Made by a program: the position numbers and the translations under genes. A DNA stretch of 64,000 nt from Solirubrobacterales bacterium (GTDB lineage: Bacteria > Actinomycetota > Thermoleophilia > Solirubrobacterales > Solirubrobacteraceae): NCBI GenBank assembly GCA_003132505.1, contig PKXY01000026.1:79396-143395 (forward strand). The letters are read 5' to 3'. Position 1 is the first letter of the stretch, and each line of letters opens with the position of its first letter. The notes beneath the pieces were generated by a model. It ran no database searches and was not told the DNA's origin. It saw only the letters and a list, made by a program, of their open reading frames with translations. Below are positions 5,419-47,358 of this stretch, one piece after another.

Positions 5419-5687
5419 GCCGCGAGCAGCGCCAGCTTTGCCGCGCGTGGCAGCTGCTTGATCCGCGCCTCCTCGCGCCGCGCGCTCGAGTTGTCCTGCA
5501 TCGGCATCGCGGACAGCAGCTCGATCGGGAGTCGGGAGCGCGTGTAGCGGCCGCCGCGACCCGCCGCGTGAGCTGCAACCCGCCGCTCGATGTCGACGGT
5601 CCAACCCGTGTAGAGCGAGCCGTCGGCGCAGCGCAGCACGTAAACCCAGGCCGCAGCGCCCGCGGCAGCCTCAGGCTTCGGCGGCAC
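5403..5687 (-). CDS. GIY-YIG nuclease-superfamily protein (UPF0213-like)
   Basis: WVYVLRCADGSLYTGWTVDIERRVAAH...RREEARIKQL fits the GIY-YIG pattern. The tracked start at 5783 would overlap the upstream gene by 113 nt, whereas a GTG at 5687 gives a 17-nt overlap. The 3' end overlaps the metH 3' end by 16 nt (convergent). Confidence 0.7.
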   Translation of the reverse strand: MPPKPEAAAGAAAWVYVLRCADGSLYTGWTVDIERRVAAHAAGRGGRYTRSRLPIELLSAMPMQDNSSARREEARIKQLPRAAKLALLAAQSGP

Positions 5688-8016
5688 CGCGTTGCACGAG
5701 CTGCTGCGAGTCGGACACGACCAGGCGGACCGGGGCGGTGTGCATGGTGCGCAGGCGAACGTCGCGCCATGACATTCCCTCACGTAGCAGCGCCGGTAAC
5801 CCCATCACGACCGCGGTGGTGATCTCGACGGCCTGCAGGATGATGCCGTAGGCGATCGCGTCGGCGGCCGATACATGGAAGCCGCCGGAGAGGACGGCGA
5901 CACAGGCGGCCTGGAAGACACCGATGTTCGACGGTGCCGCCGGGAGAACCGCGGTGACGTTCACGGCAAAGAGCACGCCGGCCGCAGCAGCGAGACCGGC
6001 GCGGCCACTGAGCCCGAGCGCCAGCAGCAGGACGTAGCATGAGGCGCACTGCAGCGCCCACGCCCCGAGCTGAGCGCCGACAGCGACGCCAGCAAGACGC
6101 GGCTCGCGGAACACACGCATCCCGGCGCGAACCCGCAATGCCGTCGCGTGCACGCGCGCCAGCAGCGCCGCGCGACGGTCCGAGTCGGATCGCGCTCCCG
6201 GCCGTCGGATGAGCAGCGGCACAATCACGATCGCGGCCACGAGCGCCGCCGGCGCGATCGCGACGGCTATCAACGCGCTGTGATGACCGTTGAAGATGTC
6301 GACGCTCGAGAACATCACCGTGCCGAGGATCGCGAGGGCTAGGAGGTTGAGAAGCGTCTGCGAGACGATCGTGCCGAGGACCACGGGCAGCGTCTCGACC
6401 GGGCGTCCGAGGCGCCGCGCGACGATCAGCGAGCGCGAGGGCTCCCCGAGGCGCGCCGGCAGGGTGGCACTCATCAGCACACCGATGAAAGTGCCCTGCA
6501 TCGCATCCGAGCGTTTGACCCGCGAATGCGGTAGCGCGGCGCGAAGAATCGCGTGCCAGGCGATCGCGCGCGCAGCCATCGCGGCGCACATCAGGGCGAG
6601 GCCGAGGATCACCCACGACGGCTGCGAAGTGACGAGGCTGCTGACGATCTTTCCAGGCCCGATCTGGCGCACGGCGAAGAAGGCGGCAAGCATGCCGGCC
6701 AAGGCAGCTGCGACGATCACGGCGCGGCGCCCGACCGTTTGCAGGGGCGCTCGCGACGTAGTGCGCGCCGGCTCGATGGACGCAAGCCGACGGCCGACGA
6801 GCGTCGCGTGCTGGGCCGGATCGGCCGCACGCAGGCCGATCCGCGCCTGCGTGCGCTGGACCGCGCCCTCTGGCAGCGGCATCGCGACCGCGTCATCGTA
6901 GGCCGCGAGTATCTGCTCGGTGACGAGCGGCCATGCGAAGCGGGCCGCAGCCGCGGCTGCGGCCGACGACATCGCAGCACGACGTGGCACGTCGTAGGCG
7001 AGGTCCAGCAGCGTCGTCGCGAGTGCGGCAGCATCGCCGGGCGCGACGAGGACGCCGTCGACGCCGTCGCTCACGACGCCCGCGTAACCGGGGATGTTCG
7101 AAGCGACGACCGGCGTCCCGGCGGCGAACGCCTCCGTCAGCACCATGCCAAAGCTCTCGCCACCAAGCGACGGCGCGAGCAGCAGGTCGGCGCCACGCAG
7201 CACCTCCTCCTTTGCCGCGTCAGAGAGCTTTCCGTGCGCGGTGACTCCAGCCGGGTCGAGCAGCCGGTGAGCCAGCTCGCCGCGCTCGACGCCAATGATG
7301 TCGAGCGTCACCGGAACGTGCTCGCGGAGCGCCTCGAAGGCAGACAGCGCGAACGGCAGGCCCTTGCGCTCGACCGCTTGGCCAACGAACACGAGACGCA
7401 GCGGCCGTTCGCCACTCGGAGCCACGGCACAAGGGCGCTCGAGCGACTCGGATATCTCAACGCCATTGGGGATCACGCGATATTCGCCGCCGAAGAAGCG
7501 TCGGCCCGTCCAGGCGGCAGCCTCGGAGACGGCAATCCGCACCGCGAGCCGGTTCATCAGCCGACTCGCGCCCGCGAGGTTGCCGAAGCCATTCGTCAGG
7601 CGGTTCGTCGAATAGCAGTGGAAGGTGCCGACGAGCGGCTGACGGCAGGAGGAGAGGACGTCCCAGCTGATCACCGGGGCGATCGGCTCGTGAACGTGGA
7701 CGACGTCGTAGCCGCCGCGCGCCAGCTCTCCGCGAACCGCCCAGATGGCGGACGGCGCGATCGCGAGGTTCGACACTGCGCCGTTGGCGGGGAAGCCGAC
7801 CGTCCGCCCGATGGCGATCACGTTTTCGTCGAGTTGACGCGCCTGGGGAAGGGCGCCACGGTGCAAACGCGCGCTGAGCGAGTCTTGCGGGTCGAACGGC
7901 GTGATGATGCTCGCAGTGTGCCCGGAGGCGCGCAGGTGAACGGCGAGCGCCTCGATGTGGCGCGTCACACCACCGGGATAGCTCCACGAGTATGGCGAGA
8001 CCAGCGCGATGCGCAC
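5671..8016 (-). CDS. fusion protein: GT4-type (GT-B) glycosyltransferase plus C-terminal polytopic LPG-synthase-TM/UPF0104 flippase-like domain
   Basis: The N-terminus reads MRIALVSPYSWSYPGGVTRHIEAL... and contains GGESFGMVLTEAFAAGTPVVASNIPG (GT4 EX7E region). The C-terminal ~350 aa hold many hydrophobic helices (VIVAAALAGMLAAFFAV, WVILGLALMCAAMAA, ...). Confidence 0.8.
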   Translation of the reverse strand: MRIALVSPYSWSYPGGVTRHIEALAVHLRASGHTASIITPFDPQDSLSARLHRGALPQARQLDENVIAIGRTVGFPANGAVSNLAIAPSAIWAVRGELARGGYDVVHVHEPIAPVISWDVLSSCRQPLVGTFHCYSTNRLTNGFGNLAGASRLMNRLAVRIAVSEAAAWTGRRFFGGEYRVIPNGVEISESLERPCAVAPSGERPLRLVFVGQAVERKGLPFALSAFEALREHVPVTLDIIGVERGELAHRLLDPAGVTAHGKLSDAAKEEVLRGADLLLAPSLGGESFGMVLTEAFAAGTPVVASNIPGYAGVVSDGVDGVLVAPGDAAALATTLLDLAYDVPRRAAMSSAAAAAAARFAWPLVTEQILAAYDDAVAMPLPEGAVQRTQARIGLRAADPAQHATLVGRRLASIEPARTTSRAPLQTVGRRAVIVAAALAGMLAAFFAVRQIGPGKIVSSLVTSQPSWVILGLALMCAAMAARAIAWHAILRAALPHSRVKRSDAMQGTFIGVLMSATLPARLGEPSRSLIVARRLGRPVETLPVVLGTIVSQTLLNLLALAILGTVMFSSVDIFNGHHSALIAVAIAPAALVAAIVIVPLLIRRPGARSDSDRRAALLARVHATALRVRAGMRVFREPRLAGVAVGAQLGAWALQCASCYVLLLALGLSGRAGLAAAAGVLFAVNVTAVLPAAPSNIGVFQAACVAVLSGGFHVSAADAIAYGIILQAVEITTAVVMGLPALLREGMSWRDVRLRTMHTAPVRLVVSDSQQLVQRGAAEA

Positions 8017-20737: not shown

Positions 20738-22735
<1,998 letters not shown>

Positions 22736-22790: not shown

Positions 22791-24785
22791 TCAGAAACCG
22801 TTTTCGATGACGTGCGTCACGGCGTTGATCAATGCAAGGTGAGTGAAGGCCTGCGGGAAGTTGCCGAGATGGCGGCCGCTTCGCGCGTCGAGCTCCTCGG
22901 CGTAGAGCTGAAGCGGCGAGGCGTGGGCGAGCAGCTGCTCACAGAGCTCACGGGCGCGCTCGGCTTCACCGATCTCTGACAGTGCCGAGACGAGCCAGAA
23001 CGAGCAGATCAGGAACGTGCCCTCCTCACCGTGAAGGCCGTCGTCGGTCTCGTCGACGCGGTAGCGCAGGATCAGCCCGTGGTCGTTCAGCTCGTCAGCG
23101 ATCGCGAGAACTGTGGCGCGCACGCGCTCATCGTCGGGCGGCAGGAAGCGGACCAGCGGGACCAGCAGGGTCGAGGCATCGAGCGCAACCGTGTCGTAGT
23201 GCTGGACGAACACGCCACGCTGATCGACACCCCGTGCGAGGATCTCGGCGCGCACCTCCTCGGCTCCGCTCTGCCAGCGCTGCGCGAGATCCGCCTCGCC
23301 GCGGAGCTCTGCCAAACGCGCACCGCGGTCGAGCGCGACCCAGCACATCAGCTTCGAGGAGACGTAGTGCTGCGGAGCGCCGCGTGCCTCCCAGATCCCC
23401 TGGTCGGGCTTGCGCCAGACCCGCCGCGCCGCCTCGACCTGGTCGCCAAGCACCGGCCACAAGCGATCAGGGATGTGGTCGTGGCGCTTGGTGTGCAGGT
23501 AGACGGAGTCGAGCACCGCGCCATAGACGTCGTTCTGACGCTGGTTGTAGGCGCCATTGCCCTTGCGGACCGGGCGCGCGCCCTCGTAGCCCTTGAGCTG
23601 GCGCAGCGTGGTCTCGCGCAGATTCCGCTCGCCGCCAATCCCGTACATGATTTGCAGCGAGCCATCCTTGTTGCGCGGCAGGTCGGCGACGTACTCCATG
23701 AAGTCGTTCGCTTCCCAGTCGAGGCCGAGCGCGTGCAGGCCCCAGAGTGTGAACGTCGCGTCGCGCATCCAGCAGTAGCGGTAGTCCCAGTTGCGCTCGC
23801 CACCTGGCGTCTCCGGTAGCGACGTGGTCAGCGCTGCGATCATCGCGCCGGTTGGTGCATAGGTCAGCCCCTTCAGGACGAGGGCCGAGCGCTGGAGGTA
23901 GGCGCGCCACGGGTGATCGGGGTAGCTGCCGGCGGCCAGCCACTCGCGCCAGAAGTGAGCGGTGCGAACGATGTGGGCATCGGCCTCGGACCATGTCCAC
24001 GGAGCGCTGAGCTCGTCGTCCCAGGAAAGCGCGCAGTATCGCGTCTCCCCCTCGCGCAGCGTGTGACGCGCGTGCGCGTCGGAACCCTCGATGCCCATCC
24101 GCAGATCGCTGCGCAGCCGCAGCGTCGTCTTGCCGTCACTCGCATCGAGTGAGAACTCCGGCTCATCCGGTCCTGGGGTCCAGACGGCCGGCTCGCGGCC
24201 GTACTCGAAGCGCGGCGCGCAGACGAGCTCGATCGGAACCTCCCCCTGTACGCACTCGACGGTTCGCACCAGCAGGTGGTCGGCGTCGTGATCGGTCGGT
24301 GGACGCGTGTGCAGGCCGGTCTGGACGGTGGCGCGCCAGTCGCCGATAGTCAGCGCGTCGCGCACCACAACCCAGCCGGTTGGTGTCATCCAGGTCGTTT
24401 CGAGCACGTTGGTACCGGGCACGTAGCGACGGCCGGCCGGCACGTCGACGCCGTAGGGAGCGAGACGGAATCCGCCCGCGCTGCGGTCGAGCAGCGACCC
24501 GAAGACGCTTGGGCCGTCGAACCGCGGCAGGCAGAGCCACTCAACCGTCCCGTCGGGAGCTACGAGCGCGCCTGTGTGACAGTCGGACAGAAAGGCGTAC
24601 TCGGCGATCGGCGGGAAAGGTGAGGCTCCGTTCCATGCAGCCTGAGACACCGCGACAGCCGACTGCGTCGTCTGCAAGTCGCGGACGCGGGCCTCGGTGC
24701 GGCGGGACGTCGATCGGCCGGCCGCGGCCGCACGAGCGGCCCCCGCCCTGCCTGGAGATGGCTTTACGCGGCGGACGGGCGGCAT
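22791..24785 (-). CDS. glycoside hydrolase family 15 protein, paralog B (tandem duplicate)
   Basis: The 664-aa protein is collinear with paralog A along its whole length (roughly 70% identical by eye). The exact start is uncertain. Confidence 0.85.
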   Translation of the reverse strand: MPPVRRVKPSPGRAGAARAAAAGRSTSRRTEARVRDLQTTQSAVAVSQAAWNGASPFPPIAEYAFLSDCHTGALVAPDGTVEWLCLPRFDGPSVFGSLLDRSAGGFRLAPYGVDVPAGRRYVPGTNVLETTWMTPTGWVVVRDALTIGDWRATVQTGLHTRPPTDHDADHLLVRTVECVQGEVPIELVCAPRFEYGREPAVWTPGPDEPEFSLDASDGKTTLRLRSDLRMGIEGSDAHARHTLREGETRYCALSWDDELSAPWTWSEADAHIVRTAHFWREWLAAGSYPDHPWRAYLQRSALVLKGLTYAPTGAMIAALTTSLPETPGGERNWDYRYCWMRDATFTLWGLHALGLDWEANDFMEYVADLPRNKDGSLQIMYGIGGERNLRETTLRQLKGYEGARPVRKGNGAYNQRQNDVYGAVLDSVYLHTKRHDHIPDRLWPVLGDQVEAARRVWRKPDQGIWEARGAPQHYVSSKLMCWVALDRGARLAELRGEADLAQRWQSGAEEVRAEILARGVDQRGVFVQHYDTVALDASTLLVPLVRFLPPDDERVRATVLAIADELNDHGLILRYRVDETDDGLHGEEGTFLICSFWLVSALSEIGEAERARELCEQLLAHASPLQLYAEELDARSGRHLGNFPQAFTHLALINAVTHVIENGF

Positions 24786-24874
24786 CGATTGCGAGCCTAT
24801 CGCGGATTCGGCTATCGGAACTTCGCCCAGCTCGAGGCGTTACAGTCGCAGAGGGACCGAAAGCCCAAAGCCCT

Positions 24875-26389
24875 GTGGAAGCATCCGCCGTCCCACAACC
24901 AGCTGTAAACGGTCGAGTACCGATCTCGGCTGCGTTCCTGCGCGTGCGCAGCGACGAGCAGCTCGTGTCGCTGTTCCGCGCCGGCTCGGATGACGCCTTC
25001 AGCGTGATCCACGAGCGCTACCACGCGCGGCTGCTCGCCTACGCGCGCCAGATGCTGCGAAGCAGCGGTGGCGACGCCGAAGACGCGCTACAGGACGTCT
25101 TCGTTCGTGCCTTCAAGTCGCTGCGGGCCAGCAACCGGCCGGTCCTGCTGCGCGCCTGGCTCTACCGGATCGCCCACAACCGCTGTATCGACGAGCTACG
25201 GCGGCCGATCCCCGTGCCGACGCAGCTCGACAGCGACGCTCGTCCGGCACTTTCGTCGGGCGCGACGCAGGACCCCTCCCTCGTCGCCGAGCGCAGCGAG
25301 GCCGTGGCGCGACTTGTCGCCGATGTTCGCACGCTGCCGGCGCCACAGCGCTCCGCGCTTCTTATGCGCGAGCTGCAGGGCCTCAGCTACCAGGAGCTGT
25401 CGATGACGCTCGGCGTCTCGGTGCCGGCAGTCAAGTCGCTGCTGCTGCGCGCCCGCACCGGTCTCGTTGACCTCAAACTCGCCCGCGACACGCCCTGCAC
25501 GGAGATCATGCTCGAGCTCGCCGAAGCCGCGGATCGCGGTGTGCGCATGAACGCGCGCTCGCGCCGGCACGTGCGCGAGTGCGATGACTGCGACGCATTC
25601 CACCGCCGGCAACGCGACCTGCACAAGCACCTCGCGGCACTGTTGCCGGTCGGGCCGCTCGGCAAGCTCCTCGGGCTGTTCAGCTTCGGTGGCAGCGGCG
25701 GAACCGGCGGCGGCGTGGCTGCCGGAGGCGCAACGGCCGGGGGCGGTGCAGCTGGAAGCGGCGTTGGGGGCGCCGGCGTGGTCGGCGGACTGACCGCAGC
25801 GAAGGTCGCGGCGGTCGTCGTGACAGCAGCGGTGATCGGTACCGCGGGCGGCGCGGCGGTCCACGCTGTCAGCGGACCACCGCCGCCACGGCCCTCGGCG
25901 CAGCTGCCGGCGGACGCCAGGCAACTCGCTCAGACCACGGGGGCGGCCGTCGCGCCGGAGGTGCCAACGGCGGGGGCGGCGGGGACTGCGAGCAGCTTGG
26001 CAGCGACGAGTGCCTCCCCGGGCGGGCAGACGCTGCTGGCCGGAGTGGGCGTCACCGGCGAGAGCGGTGTCAGCGGCGCAAGCGGAGCGACCGGCGCGAG
26101 CGGCGCGAGCGGCGCCTCTGGAGATACGGAAAGTTCGGGTGCAACAGGCGAGCTCACTCCGCTCATCAGCAGCTCGCATGCGGGTGCCCCGGCGGCGAAC
26201 CCGTCGACTGCTGCCGAAGGGCCAACTGGACCGACGGCAACGGTCGCAAGCGTGCCCACCGCCGGCTCGAGCGGATCGAGCGGCTCGAGCGGCGTCGGCG
26301 GCATGGGAGACCGCGGTGGCACGAGCGGACCTAGCGGGACGAGCGGCACCAGCGGGACGACCGGCGGCACTGCGAGTCCCGAACGCTAG
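24875..26389 (+). CDS. ECF sigma factor fused to zinc-finger anti-sigma motif, TM segment and Gly-X-Ser/Thr repeat tail
   Basis: Sigma2 region (DALQDVFVRAFKSL, RAWLYRIAHNRCIDELRR), sigma4 region (PAPQRSALLMRELQGLSYQELSMTLGVSVPAVKSLLLRAR) and HxxxCxxC (HVRECDDC, 25568..25591). These are followed by a hydrophobic Ala/Val/Gly stretch and GXS/GXT triplets. The start is the GTG at 24875 or 24944. The upstream part of tracked ORF 24380.. is antisense to GH15. Confidence 0.8.
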   Translation: MEASAVPQPAVNGRVPISAAFLRVRSDEQLVSLFRAGSDDAFSVIHERYHARLLAYARQMLRSSGGDAEDALQDVFVRAFKSLRASNRPVLLRAWLYRIAHNRCIDELRRPIPVPTQLDSDARPALSSGATQDPSLVAERSEAVARLVADVRTLPAPQRSALLMRELQGLSYQELSMTLGVSVPAVKSLLLRARTGLVDLKLARDTPCTEIMLELAEAADRGVRMNARSRRHVRECDDCDAFHRRQRDLHKHLAALLPVGPLGKLLGLFSFGGSGGTGGGVAAGGATAGGGAAGSGVGGAGVVGGLTAAKVAAVVVTAAVIGTAGGAAVHAVSGPPPPRPSAQLPADARQLAQTTGAAVAPEVPTAGAAGTASSLAATSASPGGQTLLAGVGVTGESGVSGASGATGASGASGASGDTESSGATGELTPLISSSHAGAPAANPSTAAEGPTGPTATVASVPTAGSSGSSGSSGVGGMGDRGGTSGPSGTSGTSGTTGGTASPER

Positions 26390-26436: not shown

Positions 26437-27705
26437 CTAGAGCAGGAGAAGGGCCGGCTTTTCGAGGCGCTTGCGCACGGTGCCGAGGAACTCGGCAGCC
26501 TCTGCGCCATAGACGATTCGGTGGTCGGCCGAGATGGTCATCTCCATGACGCGGCGGACGCCGACCGTGCCATCTGCGAGCACCACAGCCTTCGCCGCCG
26601 CCGCTCCGACCGCGAGGATCGCCGCCTGCGGCGGATTGATGACCGCCGTGAAGCGTGCGACGCCGAGCATCCCGAGGTTGGAGACGGTGAACGTGCCGCC
26701 GGCGAGATCCGCGGGGCCGACCGTCCCGTCCCGGACCTGAGTCGCGAGCAGGCGCGTCTGCGCCGCGATCTCGACGAGCGACTTGCTGTCCGCGTCGAAA
26801 ACCGTCGGCACGACGAGCGTGCCCTCACCGGCGACTGCGACGCCGACGTTCACGCGCCCATAGCGCTCGAAGCGCCCGTCGATGTAGGCAGCGTTAACGT
26901 TCGGATGGACGCGCAGCGCGAGCGCGCAGGCCTTGATCACGAGATCATTGACCGAGGGCAGCGGCGAGGCATGGTTGCGCAGCTGCTCGCGCAGCTCGAG
27001 AGCCGCCTCGGCGTCGACCTCGACCGTGACCTGGAACTCGGGGATCGTCGCCTTCGCACTGGCCATGCGCCGCGCGATCAGCTGCTGCGTTCGCGACAGC
27101 TCGACCACCGTGACATCGCCCTTGGCGCCAGACGCACTCCCACTCGCAGCGACCGGCGCAGCGGCAGCACCCTCGGTGGCGGTGCCTGCCGTCACACCGT
27201 CGGCGGCTGCCACGACATCAGCCTTGACGATGCGCCCTTCCGGACCACTGCCGCGGAGCGTCGCGAGGTCAATGCCGAGCTCACCGGCGATCCGGCGAGC
27301 AACCGGTGATGCCTTTAGCCGCTCGCCCGAGCCCGGGCGAGCCGGGTCGCCCGGTCCTGGCAGAGGAGCAGCACTTGTCGGGATAGCCTCGCCGGCGGGT
27401 TCGCGCGGCGCGGCTGGGCTCGGCGACGCCGCGGTCGGTGTCTCGCCGTTGGTGTCCCGCTTCGCCGATTCGGCGTCCGCGAGGAGGCGTGCGATGGTTG
27501 CGCCGATCGCGAGCGTGTCGCCCTCCCGGGCGAGGATCTGGAGGAAGCCCTCGGCGTCCGCCTCGTAAGTGACGGTAGCCTTGTCGGTCTCGATGTCGGC
27601 GAGCGGCTCGCCGGACCGCACCTGGTCGCCGGGCTGCTTGAGCCACTTGATGATCGTCCCCTCCTCCATCGAATCGGAGAGGCGGGGCATGATGACATCG
27701 CTCAC
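26437..27705 (-). CDS. 2-oxoacid dehydrogenase E2 (dihydrolipoamide acyltransferase)
   Basis: Lipoyl domain (IMPRLSDSMEEGTIIKWL...ADIETDKAT), a Pro/Ala linker, a subunit-binding domain (ASPVARRIAGELGIDL) and a catalytic domain (DHRIVYGAEAAEFL). The GTG at 27705 overlaps the E1beta stop (GTGA); an ATG at 27690 is an alternative start. Confidence 0.88.
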   Translation of the reverse strand: MSDVIMPRLSDSMEEGTIIKWLKQPGDQVRSGEPLADIETDKATVTYEADAEGFLQILAREGDTLAIGATIARLLADAESAKRDTNGETPTAASPSPAAPREPAGEAIPTSAAPLPGPGDPARPGSGERLKASPVARRIAGELGIDLATLRGSGPEGRIVKADVVAAADGVTAGTATEGAAAAPVAASGSASGAKGDVTVVELSRTQQLIARRMASAKATIPEFQVTVEVDAEAALELREQLRNHASPLPSVNDLVIKACALALRVHPNVNAAYIDGRFERYGRVNVGVAVAGEGTLVVPTVFDADSKSLVEIAAQTRLLATQVRDGTVGPADLAGGTFTVSNLGMLGVARFTAVINPPQAAILAVGAAAAKAVVLADGTVGVRRVMEMTISADHRIVYGAEAAEFLGTVRKRLEKPALLLL

Positions 27706-28742
27706 GCGCGCAAGCCTAGCGTCGCGAGCACCGCAGCCTCGATCCTGTCTTCGCCGGGCATCGCGGCGAGCTCGAGCTGCTTTGCGTAGGGGAGCGGCAC
27801 TTCGGCCATACCGACCCGTTCGACGGGAGCGTCGAGGTAATCGAAGCAGGCCTTCTGGATCCGAGCGGCGAGCTCGGCGGTCACTCCATAGCTCGGCCAG
27901 CCCTCCTCGATGCAAACCGCGCGGCTGGTCTTCGCAACCGACTCAGCGACCGTATCGACGTCGAGCGGGCGCAGCGAGCGAAGGTCCACGACCTCGGCAT
28001 CGACGCCATGGTCGCGCGCCAGCCGCTCAGCCACATGGAGCGCACGCACAGTCGCGTAGGAATGCGCGACGAGCGTGATGTCGCTGCCGCGACGCGCGAC
28101 GTTGGCAAGGCCGATCGGCGTGAGGAACTCCGGGTCGAGCGGAACCTCGCCGCGCTCCTTGTAGATTGCCAGGTTCTCGACCACGAGAACCGGGTCTTCG
28201 TCGCGGATCGCCGACTTCAGGAGGCCCTTCGCGTCGGCCGGCGTGGCCGGCGCGACGACCTTCAAACCGGGCGTCGAGGCGAACCAGCCCTCAAAGGACT
28301 GCGAGTGCTGGGCTGTCAGCTGGTTGCCGGCGCCGTTAGGGGTGCGGATCACGAGCGGGCAGCGAACCTGACCGCCGAACATCGCGCCGATCTTTGCCGC
28401 GTGGTTGACGACCTGATCCATCGCGACGAGCAGGAAGTTGATCGTCATGATCTCGACGACGGGGCGCTCGCCAAGCATCGCCGCGCCGACGCCGGCACCG
28501 ACGAAGCCCTCCTCGGAGATCGGCGTGTCGCGCACGCGCTCGGCTCCGAACTCGGCCATCAACCCGGCGGTGACCTTGTATGCGCCCTCGAAGACGCCTA
28601 CCTCCTCACCCATGATGAAGACATGCTCGTCGCGTTGCAGTTCCTCGCGGAGCGCGAGACGCAGGGCCTCGCGGTAGGTCATTACCTCGGTGGCTTGTGG
28701 TTCAAGCGACGGCTCGTTTGTCACGGTCTCGACGGTGCTCAT
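27702..28742 (-). CDS. 2-oxoacid dehydrogenase E1 component, beta subunit
   Basis: MTYREALRLALREELQRDEHVFIMGEEVG...RVRDTPISEEGFVG is the typical E1beta (transketolase-like) pattern. Confidence 0.9.
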   Translation of the reverse strand: MSTVETVTNEPSLEPQATEVMTYREALRLALREELQRDEHVFIMGEEVGVFEGAYKVTAGLMAEFGAERVRDTPISEEGFVGAGVGAAMLGERPVVEIMTINFLLVAMDQVVNHAAKIGAMFGGQVRCPLVIRTPNGAGNQLTAQHSQSFEGWFASTPGLKVVAPATPADAKGLLKSAIRDEDPVLVVENLAIYKERGEVPLDPEFLTPIGLANVARRGSDITLVAHSYATVRALHVAERLARDHGVDAEVVDLRSLRPLDVDTVAESVAKTSRAVCIEEGWPSYGVTAELAARIQKACFDYLDAPVERVGMAEVPLPYAKQLELAAMPGEDRIEAAVLATLGLRA

Positions 28743-45671: not shown

Positions 45672-47009
45672 TTAGGTTACGAAGCTCGCGGCGTAGGCGA
45701 TGAACGCGAGCCCAAGCACGGCGGCGCCAGCCAACTCGCGTAGCGATACGAGCTCGTCGCGGCGGACGGTGAAGAACAGCGCAAGCAGCGCAAACGGGTC
45801 GACGTACTTCTGCCAGGGGTAGCGGATCGCGAGCGCGCCGACGAGGAAGGTCGCGAAGAAAGCGAACAGCAGCCAGCGGCGGGGGCCGACGCGCCAGCGC
45901 CAGCCAAGGATCGCCCCCGCCAGCGGCACGAGTACCCAGAACAGGAGCGAGCTGCCGAGCGGGACCGGCAGGCGCTTCGCGGCGTTCCACAGCAAACCGG
46001 CCGCGTGAACGCCGGGCCGCGCCGGGAATGCAAGCAACAGCACAGCGCCGAGGACGAGTCCGACAGCGGGGGCGCGGAGCGCCGCGACAGTCTGGCTGCG
46101 ACTGGTGCCCCGCGAGGCCCAAGCCGCCTCCAGCAGCGTCGGCGCGAACAGCACCACGCCGTAGAGGCCGAACGTGGCCAGCGCCAGCTCGGGCGTCTGG
46201 ACCACGAGCGCACCCTGCGTGGCGCCGGCGTCACGCCCCGGAGCGCAGAGCGCGCAGGAGCTGGGATCACCGCCCGGCGGAACCAGTCCATGCCAGTCCA
46301 GGAAGAGCAAGCCGACGGGTATCGCGCTGATCGCCACACCAACGAGCAGCTCGGCCCGGCGCAGCAACGGCAGCCCGACCCACAACGCGTAGAGGCCGGC
46401 GACCGCGAGCATGAACGCGGCGCTCTGGCGGGTCAGCGTGGCCGCGGCCAGCGCGCAGCAGCCGACGAGAAAAGGGCCCGCCCGCTTGCTCTCGCGGAAG
46501 CGCTCGAAGCGCTCGATGGCAAGCACGATGAACAGCGTGGCGAGGTTGTCGGTGATCGCCCGAAACGAAGTGCCGAAGACATACGGCGACAGCACGAAGA
46601 GCACGCTCAGGGCAAGCGCCTGCAGCCGACGCAGTCCCAGGCGCCGCTCCAGCAGGACGTAGACGGCCAGCGCCAAGAGGTATGAGATCACGACCTCGAC
46701 GAACCGCATCTCCCACAGCGCGTAGCCGATCAGCTTGCCGAGATAGGCCTCGAGCAGCGGGAACAGCGGGGTCTGGGCCGCGACGTAATGGCCGAGGTCC
46801 GGGAAGGGAAGCTGGCGCGCGAACTGCCGGATCGTCGGGTAGATGTAGTTGCCCTCGTCCGTCGAGTGGAAGATCGGCAACGTGACCGTGAGACCACGCA
46901 GCGCGGCGACCATCACGACGAACGGGACCGCGAGCACCACCGGCACCAGCCAGCGGGAGTCCAGCCAGCGGGAGGAGTCCTCGGAAGTGGAGCGCTCAGC
47001 GCTACTCAT
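45672..47009 (-). CDS. polytopic membrane protein, probable GT-C fold glycosyltransferase (PMT/ArnT-like)
   Basis: The protein has more than 10 hydrophobic helices and a first-loop acidic motif (FHSTDEGNYIYP). The start is re-called to the ATG at 47009, because the tracked N-terminal extension is a translation of the tRNA-Pro gene. Confidence 0.55.
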   Translation of the reverse strand: MSSAERSTSEDSSRWLDSRWLVPVVLAVPFVVMVAALRGLTVTLPIFHSTDEGNYIYPTIRQFARQLPFPDLGHYVAAQTPLFPLLEAYLGKLIGYALWEMRFVEVVISYLLALAVYVLLERRLGLRRLQALALSVLFVLSPYVFGTSFRAITDNLATLFIVLAIERFERFRESKRAGPFLVGCCALAAATLTRQSAAFMLAVAGLYALWVGLPLLRRAELLVGVAISAIPVGLLFLDWHGLVPPGGDPSSCALCAPGRDAGATQGALVVQTPELALATFGLYGVVLFAPTLLEAAWASRGTSRSQTVAALRAPAVGLVLGAVLLLAFPARPGVHAAGLLWNAAKRLPVPLGSSLLFWVLVPLAGAILGWRWRVGPRRWLLFAFFATFLVGALAIRYPWQKYVDPFALLALFFTVRRDELVSLRELAGAAVLGLAFIAYAASFVT

Positions 47010-47098
47010 CGCCGGCGCCACGATAGGTGAACTCGGCGCCGAGGAGGTGCGCTCATCGGTGCCTCGAGCCGTCGCGCCGTCGGGGTGAGAATCGGCAG

Positions 47099-47172
47099 TC
47101 GGGGCGCCCGGATTCGAACCGGGGACCTCACCGACCCGAACGGTGCGCGCTACCAGGCTGCGCCACGCCCCG
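47099..47172 (-). tRNA. tRNA-Pro (anticodon CGG)
   Basis: Hand-folded cloverleaf: CGGGGCG-TG-GCGC-AGCCTGGTA-GCGC-G-CACCG-TTCGGGT-CGGTG-AGGTC-CCCGG-TTCGAAT-CCGGG-CGCCCCG-A. It is 74 nt and CCA is not encoded. Confidence 0.92.
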
Positions 47173-47358
47173 ACGCACCTCGGGAGTATTCCACAGGCGC
47201 GTGCTCCGCCGGCCTGCCGCAGCAATGGTGGCGCTGCGCGAGATCATCGTCGAGCTCGAGCAGCTGCTCGAGCCGGCGGTTGCTCGCGCCCCTCCCACGG
47301 CTGGGTCGAGATCCCAAGACCTTCTCAGCCGTTCTGGCCGTACTTTGCGCGACCGGGC

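Follow-up and report, generated by a model that had tools for sequence, protein, structure and literature searches.

The gene at 24875..26389 on the plus strand of a 64,000-nucleotide stretch of contig PKXY01000026.1 from a Solirubrobacterales bacterium (the whole stretch is hereafter called the window) encodes, in a single chain, an extracytoplasmic function (ECF) sigma factor followed by a zinc-motif domain, a predicted transmembrane (TM) segment and a disordered tail. The polypeptide is probably a sigma/anti-sigma module in one piece, which would be inhibited in cis, tethered to the membrane, autoregulated and freed by regulated proteolysis. This reading is supported by the architecture of the protein and its conservation, by the predicted fold, by the absence of a partner gene and by a conserved promoter. 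The elements of the locus, all on the plus strand, are as follows.

24815..24848, plus strand: candidate autoregulatory ECF-type promoter, with -35 GGAACTTCG at 24817..24825, an 11-nt spacer and -10 GCGTTACAGT at 24837..24846
24875..26389, plus strand: single coding sequence of 504 residues plus stop, a fused ECF sigma factor, zinc-motif domain, TM segment and disordered tail
25013..25204, plus strand: sigma region 2, residues 47-110 (Pfam PF04542 Sigma70_r2, E 2.6e-15, 56.4 bits against a cutoff of 24)
25328..25456, plus strand: sigma region 4, residues 152-194 (Pfam PF08281 Sigma70_r4_2, E 6.6e-12, 45.3 bits against a cutoff of 25.7)
25481..25660, plus strand: helical zinc-motif domain resembling a zinc-associated anti-sigma (ZAS) domain, residues 203-262 (from ligand candidates and AlphaFold2 helices)
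25661..25789, plus strand: Gly-rich, presumably cytoplasmic linker, residues 263-305 (21 of 43 residues Gly, 49%)
25790..25864, plus strand: predicted single TM helix, residues 306-330 (from hydropathy, an AlphaFold2 helix and conservation)
25865..26386, plus strand: disordered Gly/Ala/Ser/Thr/Pro tail, residues 331-504 (from composition and the predicted local distance difference test, pLDDT)
25922..25957, plus strand: juxtamembrane motif QLAQTTGAAVAP, residues 350-361, predicted to be extracytoplasmic (TGAAVAP, residues 355-361)
26048..26128, plus strand: Gly-X-Ser/Thr run of 9 triplets, residues 392-418, phase-locked Gly-X-Y
26264..26308, plus strand: Gly-X-Ser/Thr run of 5 triplets, residues 464-478, phase-locked Gly-X-Y
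26318..26371, plus strand: Gly-X-Ser/Thr run of 6 triplets, residues 482-499, phase-locked Gly-X-Y

The open reading frame (ORF) begins with GTG and runs without interruption to the stop codon at 26387..26389. The JGI gene call for an identical protein (P0001, 481 residues) begins at the GTG of codon 24, 23 codons downstream of 24875, and omits the N-terminal MEASALP. Position 24875 is taken as the true start because this N-terminus is kept in homologues of 44-79% identity, some of whose loci (L004-L006) have ATG there. In the sigma core, regions 2 and 4 both exceed their curated Pfam thresholds, as in an ECF (group 4) sigma-70 factor; Pfam and NCBIfam profile scans of the protein gave no match to region 3, and the general sigma70-ECF model TIGR02937 of NCBIfam scores 82.2 bits against a cutoff of 42.9. 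ECF sigma chains of the PDB align to residues 25-202 only, and none of the named NCBIfam ECF equivalogs (SigM, SigE, SigW, RpoE and others) passes its cutoff, the best being PRK12513 at 100 against 206 bits and all remaining equivalog or subfamily models likewise falling far short. Within region 2, the string WLYRxAHNRC is invariant in an alignment of 108 sequences, to which all statements of invariance below refer. Its cysteine, Cys104 (25184..25186, AHNRC), is thus a further cysteine present in all 108 aligned homologues, and could matter for a thiol-based mechanism.

Downstream of the sigma core, residues 203-262 appear to form a putative zinc-binding anti-sigma domain. Its candidate ligands are C208-x23-H232-x3-C236-x2-C239, in which HVRECDDC occupies residues 232-239 (25568..25591) and the codon of C208 lies at 25496..25498; this is the spacing of ZAS proteins, namely HxxxCxxC with a fourth His or Cys approximately 23-27 residues upstream. 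C208, H232, C236 and C239 are all invariant, as are A203, R204, R224, R228, R230, L256, P258, G260 and K310, and the domain closes with the invariant L256-x-P258-x-G260. In the AlphaFold2 model computed from the 108-sequence alignment, residues 200-260 are the most confident part of the protein (pLDDT 90-96), and the last helix of sigma4 reaches residue 205, with no linker before the zinc-motif domain. The domain itself is modelled as helices at 208-221, 227-235 and 237-256 and a short one at 261-268, and the same fold is obtained when it is modelled alone (pLDDT ~90-94). In this model Cys208 is the first residue of helix I, His232 lies inside helix II and Cys236 and Cys239 sit at the junction of helices II and III, a predicted placement that fits ZAS geometry.

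The linker that follows is Gly/Ala-rich in composition and variable in length in all homologues. Behind it, the Kyte-Doolittle profile (19-residue window) reaches its maximum of 2.09 at residues 311-329, within a peak region of residues 303-329 that is the sole peak above 1.7 in the protein; an AlphaFold2 helix at residues 308-322 coincides with the hydrophobic segment, and Lys310 at the cytoplasmic edge of the predicted helix is invariant. A helix rich in Ala, Val, Gly and Thr is of the type cut by site-2 proteases, which is compatible with a release model and is not proof of it. The tail of 174 residues opens with GPPPPRP and contains 36 Gly, 32 Ala, 30 Ser, 22 Thr and 17 Pro (21%, 18%, 17%, 13% and 10%, respectively); AlphaFold2 gives it no secondary structure, with pLDDT <50 in most 10-residue blocks and 51-53 in four. 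The periodicity of its Gly-X-Ser/Thr runs is real, as no more than 3 of 20,000 shuffles that preserve composition gave a run of 9 triplets; in the DNA the runs correspond to tandem repeats of period 9, located at 26056..26115, 26263..26302 and 26321..26365. Membership of the collagen-like family (Scl1/Scl2, BclA) was considered and rejected, the runs being of at most 9 triplets and the model NF038329 scoring 18.7 bits against a cutoff of 325.

The juxtamembrane motif, [A/T]xx[T/A]G[A/G][A/T][I/V][A/G]P, is kept in two separate clades of the family and is missing from the one that lies between the two. Of the 239 family members, 48 have the pattern [ATS]G[AGS][ATS][IVMLF][AGS]P, a number that drops to 7 when the tails are shuffled. 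Most of these motifs lie at a fixed distance of approximately 114-122 residues past the CxxC and approximately 25-30 residues outside the predicted membrane helix; the motif may serve for site-1 cleavage or for docking. Near-identical homologues (P0002, P0003, P0005 and P0006) differ from one another by in-frame indels of 1, 3, 6, 18 and 20 residues. Among homologues of 84-100% identity such indels are all in frame and, with few exceptions, lie within the Gly linker or the period-9 repeats, as exemplified by a 20-residue deletion within the linker of P0006, which suggests slippage-driven length polymorphism or, alternatively, assembly collapse. Exported Ser/Thr-rich tails are often O-glycosylated in Actinobacteria. 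A glycosyltransferase gene of the PMT / PMT_2 family (protein O-mannosyltransferase-like) approximately 20 kb off, at 45672..47225 on the minus strand, serves here only as a reminder of this.

A reading of the same DNA made earlier from its letters and ORF translations (the sequence-only reading) had already proposed the covalent fusion of sigma factor, zinc motif and TM segment in one polypeptide, and the present analysis confirms it. The sigma2/sigma4 core it claimed is recovered by Pfam; its HVRECDDC lies where it was placed, the upstream Cys being C208; its Gly-rich linker, hydrophobic and possibly membrane-spanning segment and Gly-X-Ser/Thr repeats are likewise upheld by the counts, hydropathy peak, modelled helix and shuffle test given above. 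The profile check that it proposed was successful in part, in that Sigma70_r2 and Sigma70_r4 were detected and zf-HC2 was not, even at E<=10.

The architecture is widely conserved. A search with residues 1-342, of which the best 120 listed clusters at 90% identity were considered, returned proteins of 52-100% identity, nearly all of 450-600 residues, with HxxxCxxC in 119 of the 120; full-length entries among them have a hydrophobic segment approximately 70 residues past this motif and then a low-complexity tail. In an exhaustive HMMER search with residues 1-262 against 1.84 billion representatives of 50%-identity clusters, 1,071 representatives reach E<=1e-30 to this query of sigma and zinc-motif domains, and the best 150 of the 1,071 (43-94% identity) nearly all align through the zinc-motif domain. 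Of the 144 new proteins among these 150, 132 carry C-x(20-27)-HxxxCxxC and 120 a downstream hydrophobic peak. In sum, the single-ORF layout is common to approximately 250 homologues of 43-100% identity, and the tail is conserved in composition only. Every named homologue derives from a metagenome-assembled genome (MAG) of the Solirubrobacteraceae. Several database relatives (P0009, P0025, P0046, P0074, P0087, P0133, P0168, P0170 and others) have Arg-rich C-terminal halves, the composition of which is that of the Gly/Ala/Ser tail read in the +1 frame; such entries therefore seem to stem from frameshifts in repeat DNA of high GC content in public assemblies. There is no separate anti-sigma gene beside the sigma gene in any of nine loci, and no paralogue of the fusion protein in the window or the loci.

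The promoter upstream of the gene is a new finding beyond the sequence-only reading, which had suggested a search for an ECF-type element in 24786..24874; a site is present there at 24817..24846, and it fits the classic ECF pattern GGAAC-N16-CGTT. A footprint was obtained by comparing the window with eight orthologous loci (L001-L008) retrieved through exact protein look-up. In whole or in part, the promoter is retained in 7 of these 8. Its -35 and -10 blocks are identical in the window and L001-L003, and differ by one to three bases in L004, L007 and L008; L005 retains the -10 only, and the promoter region of L006 is divergent. Spacer and flanks, by contrast, vary freely among the loci, and the conservation of the two blocks while the spacer diverges argues for positive autoregulation, by which the sigma factor would transcribe its own gene. 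Positive autoregulation is usual among ECF sigma factors. With a position weight matrix (PWM) built from the seven autoregulatory sites only, the window site scores 31.3 bits, and the runner-up in the 64 kb scores 11.4, within the range of shuffled sequence. Similarly, GGAAC-N15-17-CGTT has one match in the 64 kb on both strands, oriented toward the sigma gene, and PWM scans of the window and of ~15 kb around the eight orthologues yielded no further site. Scans for sigma-70 promoters, terminators and Rfam families around the sigma gene found nothing.

Precedents exist for such a fusion. The actinobacterial groups ECF48, ECF52 and ECF53 are described as having C-terminal fusions in which a zinc finger (likely ZAS) is combined with one to two TM helices, and proteolysis is their predicted means of activation (PMC8999054, which for ECF48 and ECF53 summarises Huang et al. 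2015). In addition to its sigma domain, the ECF52 member SCO4117 of Streptomyces coelicolor has zf-HC2, a TM region, a stretch rich in Pro and a carbohydrate-binding module; in a genetic study of 2018, a sigma-only truncation activated its own promoter, and an unknown protease was proposed to carry out the excision (PMC5826349). In Pseudomonas putida, the hybrid IutY (ECF243) is released by Prc and RseP, as found experimentally, and its truncated form is constitutively active; the fragment released from IutY-type hybrids retains part of the anti-sigma domain (PMC8999054). The statement in the sequence-only reading that fused zinc-finger/TM ECF proteins of actinobacteria are catalogued, for which it tentatively named ECF52, is therefore correct (ECF48, ECF52 and ECF53; PMC8999054, PMC5826349), whereas its statement that the mechanism is uncharacterised needs amendment, given the partial study of SCO4117 (PMC5826349) and the experimental release of IutY (PMC8999054).

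The window protein resembles SCO4117 in being actinobacterial and in the order of its parts (ECF core, zinc-finger motif, TM region and a long, low-complexity extracytoplasmic extension), and for both proteins positive autoregulation and release by an unknown protease are proposed. As in ECF52, one predicted helix, conserved in the family, follows the zinc motif, and the restriction of the named homologues to Solirubrobacteraceae MAGs agrees with the restriction of that group to actinobacteria. Unlike SCO4117, however, neither the window protein nor the ten longest relatives examined, of 610-896 residues, have zf-HC2 (PF13490), a Pro-rich spacer or the carbohydrate-binding module (smart00776), and the extensions of these ten relatives contain no Pfam domain. 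The tail is instead rich in Gly, Ala, Ser and Thr (Pro 10%) with Gly-X-Ser/Thr repeats, and CSGYN-17-SRHA, put forward as the SCO4117 promoter, bears no resemblance to GGAAC-N16-CGTT. The protein may likewise be compared with ECF48 and ECF53 as a zinc-finger/TM C-terminal fusion with expected proteolytic activation, the likeness being to group descriptions that are themselves bioinformatic only. IutY is similar as a single polypeptide with an ECF sigma factor, a TM segment and an external part, but it is proteobacterial, of the FecI/FecR type and coupled to a TonB-dependent receptor, with a folded periplasmic domain and no zinc motif.

Outside the Actinomycetota, a tblastn search against plasmids found WP_012642865.1 on the megaplasmid of Thermomicrobium roseum DSM 5159 (L017 2956..4266), a protein of 437 residues annotated 'RNA polymerase sigma factor', which is 30% identical over query residues 26-249 and has the same layout, with an ECF core followed by C-x26-HVDQCEIC, a single hydrophobic helix and an external portion. 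It differs in having neither the Gly-rich linker nor the Gly-X-Ser/Thr tail, its external part of ~100 residues not being of low complexity. Plasmid matches from Nonomuraea and Streptomyces were set aside as unrelated to the fusion, since they carry another C-terminal extension, SnoaL-like by eye, without zinc motif or TM segment. Among two-protein systems, SigW-RsiW of Bacillus subtilis and SigR-RsrA of Streptomyces share the HxxxCxxC motif with a fourth ligand 23-27 residues upstream. RsiW, moreover, is anchored in the membrane, and its removal proceeds through site-1 and site-2 proteolysis and then Clp degradation. In such two-protein ZAS systems the inhibitor and the sigma factor are separate chains, so that breakdown of the former can leave the latter intact.

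For the fused protein, the following course may be envisaged. Given that no signal peptide precedes the large sigma part at the N-terminus, the topology would be N-in and C-out. At rest, the zinc-motif domain would mask sigma2 and sigma4 in cis, and the membrane anchor would hold the protein away from RNA polymerase. An event on the envelope side would then act on the exposed tail, where the initial cleavage might fall close to the conserved juxtamembrane motif, after which a site-2 protease would cleave the Ala/Val/Gly-rich helix within the membrane and free the sigma part. The freed sigma factor would transcribe its own gene, in positive feedback, as well as a further regulon. RsiW and RseA are both cut by a site-1 and then a site-2 protease inside Ala-rich membrane helices. 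The topology, the cis inhibition and the proteolytic steps are inferred, by analogy in part with the predicted proteolysis of ECF48, ECF52 and ECF53, the truncated SCO4117 and the release of IutY.

Several results weigh against this mechanism. The C-terminal part has no Pfam zf-HC2 (PF13490) or NCBIfam match even at E<=10, no Pfam domain occurs anywhere in residues 201-504 at E<=10, and PF13490 is found on none of the 120 homologues in their precomputed domain lists. The family profile matched no anti-sigma chain of the PDB at E<=10; residues 196-264 resemble RsiW, RsrA, RslA and ChrR neither in sequence nor in fold (PDB profile search and Foldseek), and Foldseek with the isolated domain model gave nothing significant, the best E value being 3.5 and the cytoplasmic part of MucA appearing only at E 7-9. 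As homology was shown by no route, the label 'anti-sigma domain' derives from motif, position, predicted helices and precedent. The full-length model has a predicted template modelling score (pTM) of only 0.35, and the sigma chains found by Foldseek superpose poorly on it (template modelling score ~0.2, root-mean-square deviation 18-26 Å); its domain arrangement is thus unreliable and cannot separate an inhibited from an open arrangement, and it shows no cis contact between sigma and anti-sigma parts. The membrane span is predicted from hydropathy, the modelled helix and conservation, and the charges that flank the helix are nearly balanced. Furthermore, simple degradation of the inhibitor, as it happens in two-protein systems, would not obviously spare the sigma factor, because a processive protease that set out from the cut membrane helix would reach the Gly tract and the zinc domain ahead of the sigma domain.

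Alternatively, the protein might act as a thiol or zinc switch without release, in which the Cys3His site senses oxidants or electrophiles as in RsrA and the sigma factor is active while tethered; loss of zinc would open the inhibitory domain, and the 43-residue Gly linker would give the sigma part the reach to RNA polymerase at the membrane. The invariance of the ligand set C-x23-H-x3-C-x2-C and of C104 in sigma region 2 would suit such a switch, as would a flexible Gly-rich tether whose composition is conserved in all homologues. However, a redox sensor in the cytoplasm would have no need of a conserved membrane helix or of an external tail of 170 residues, and it is general knowledge that membrane-bound ZAS proteins such as RsiW are under proteolytic rather than redox control, which makes this explanation unlikely.

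It is likewise doubtful that the extension is no inhibitor at all and serves instead as a required or positive module, be it as part of a pro-sigma factor in the manner of the FecR/IutY N-domain or as a device for localisation or stability, with control exerted mainly at transcription. Such a role would accord with the lack of homology to known anti-sigma domains in the profile and Foldseek searches, the junction of sigma4 and helix I without a linker, the retention of part of the anti-sigma domain in the fragment released from IutY-type proteins, and the strong, conserved autoregulatory promoter. Against it stand the ZAS-type ligand spacing directly after an ECF core that has no separate anti-sigma gene nearby, and the ability of the sigma-only truncation of SCO4117 to activate its own promoter.

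A bolder proposal, and a rather improbable one, is that the family constitutes a distinct, Thermoleophilia-centred ECF group without a folded sensor, whose sole input is the disordered, length-polymorphic Gly-X-Ser/Thr tail and in which a stop-signal tract allows two signals to be integrated. The tail, possibly O-glycosylated and threaded through the wall, would probe the envelope or serve as bait for extracellular proteases. By analogy, the Gly-rich tract would act as a 'slippery' stop that halts an AAA+ protease before the sigma part after intramembrane cleavage, and a soluble species of sigma factor and zinc domain would be left, gated by the Cys3His site. Stop signals of this kind operate in NF-kB p105 and in the processing of DnaX by ClpXP.

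With regard to the genomic neighbourhood, the sigma gene is, as the sequence-only reading had noted, divergent from a tandem pair of GH15 genes (22791..24785 and 20738..22735, minus strand), from which an 89-bp intergenic region separates it; on the other side it is convergent with a cluster of 2-oxoacid dehydrogenase E2, E1beta and E1alpha and GntR genes. The GH15 paralogues are 70% identical to each other and have TREH_N domains, scoring 357-375 bits with the trehalase-like NCBIfam model against a cutoff of 820; they resemble archaeal TreH trehalases. The arrangement is the same in L001-L003 (60-79% identity), where the tandem GH15 pair is retained. In L004 and L005, genes for an SCP2-like protein, an iron-type alcohol dehydrogenase (Fe-ADH) and an aldehyde dehydrogenase lie by the sigma gene, and in L006 a hypothetical gene, in each case without GH15; in L007 a ZIP transporter gene adjoins the sigma gene and a single GH15 gene lies one gene away. 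Biotin (bio) genes and a rubredoxin gene recur farther out across the loci, and the GH15 adjacency looks like inherited synteny because the whole region, including these genes, is syntenic.

The sequence-only reading had suggested the GH15 genes as a candidate regulon. A direct regulon is very unlikely, even though the divergent arrangement across only 89 bp, the adjacent tandem pair in L001-L003 and the GH15 gene near the L007 orthologue speak in its favour. The sole match to the ECF promoter in the 64 kb faces the sigma gene, with no such motif upstream of the GH15 genes and no second site at the eight orthologous loci; GH15 is absent beside the L004, L005 and L006 orthologues; and the adjacency elsewhere is explained by the shared ancestry of the syntenic region. 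Moreover, GH15 carries a TANNNT element of its own, TAGGCT at 24799..24794 on the minus strand, 8 nt before the GH15 ATG (24785), which is the spacing of a leaderless mRNA. The element is conserved in four loci, as TAGGCT in the window, L001 and L002 and TAACCT in L003, and fits a leaderless start of the housekeeping type. The GH15 and ECF promoters would then sit back to back, because the presumed GH15 -35 would overlap the ECF -35 of the opposite strand.

Two other genes of the window deserve mention. The E2 ORF at 26437..27915 (minus strand) encodes 492 residues, against 412-423 residues in the orthologue calls, and its true start is probably ~70 codons past the first TTG, because the lipoyl domain begins at residue 73. 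At 5671..8016 (minus strand), a 781-residue fusion combines a GT4 glycosyltransferase with a TM domain of the lysyl-phosphatidylglycerol-synthase type.

Finally, the case that the sequence-only reading had named as refuting the fusion, a sequencing or assembly frameshift that joined the sigma gene to a separate anti-sigma gene, is suggested by the error-prone, high-GC, low-complexity repeats and by the Arg-rich, frameshift-like tails of some homologue entries but can effectively be dismissed, since the same unbroken ORF recurs in hundreds of independent assemblies at 43-100% identity (approximately 250 homologues share the single-ORF layout), the junction of sigma4 and helix I is a continuous, conserved and confidently predicted helix, and the indels of close relatives all preserve the frame.

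Sigma/zinc-finger/TM fusions are thus a class already known, and the window protein joins it, possibly as a sensor-less variant; nothing established is overturned by the findings on this family. For annotation there is a gain, in that starts in the family are often called 23 codons late and that, as Pfam zf-HC2 misses the zinc domain, the proteins are annotated merely as 'sigma-70 family'. All fused proteins of this kind pose the puzzle of how an inhibitor can be removed from the same chain without destroying the sigma factor, and among the actinobacterial members only SCO4117 has been touched experimentally. The present family is attractive in this respect, being large and compact, with no folded sensor domain, and having an unusually clear autoregulatory promoter that could be used directly as a reporter.

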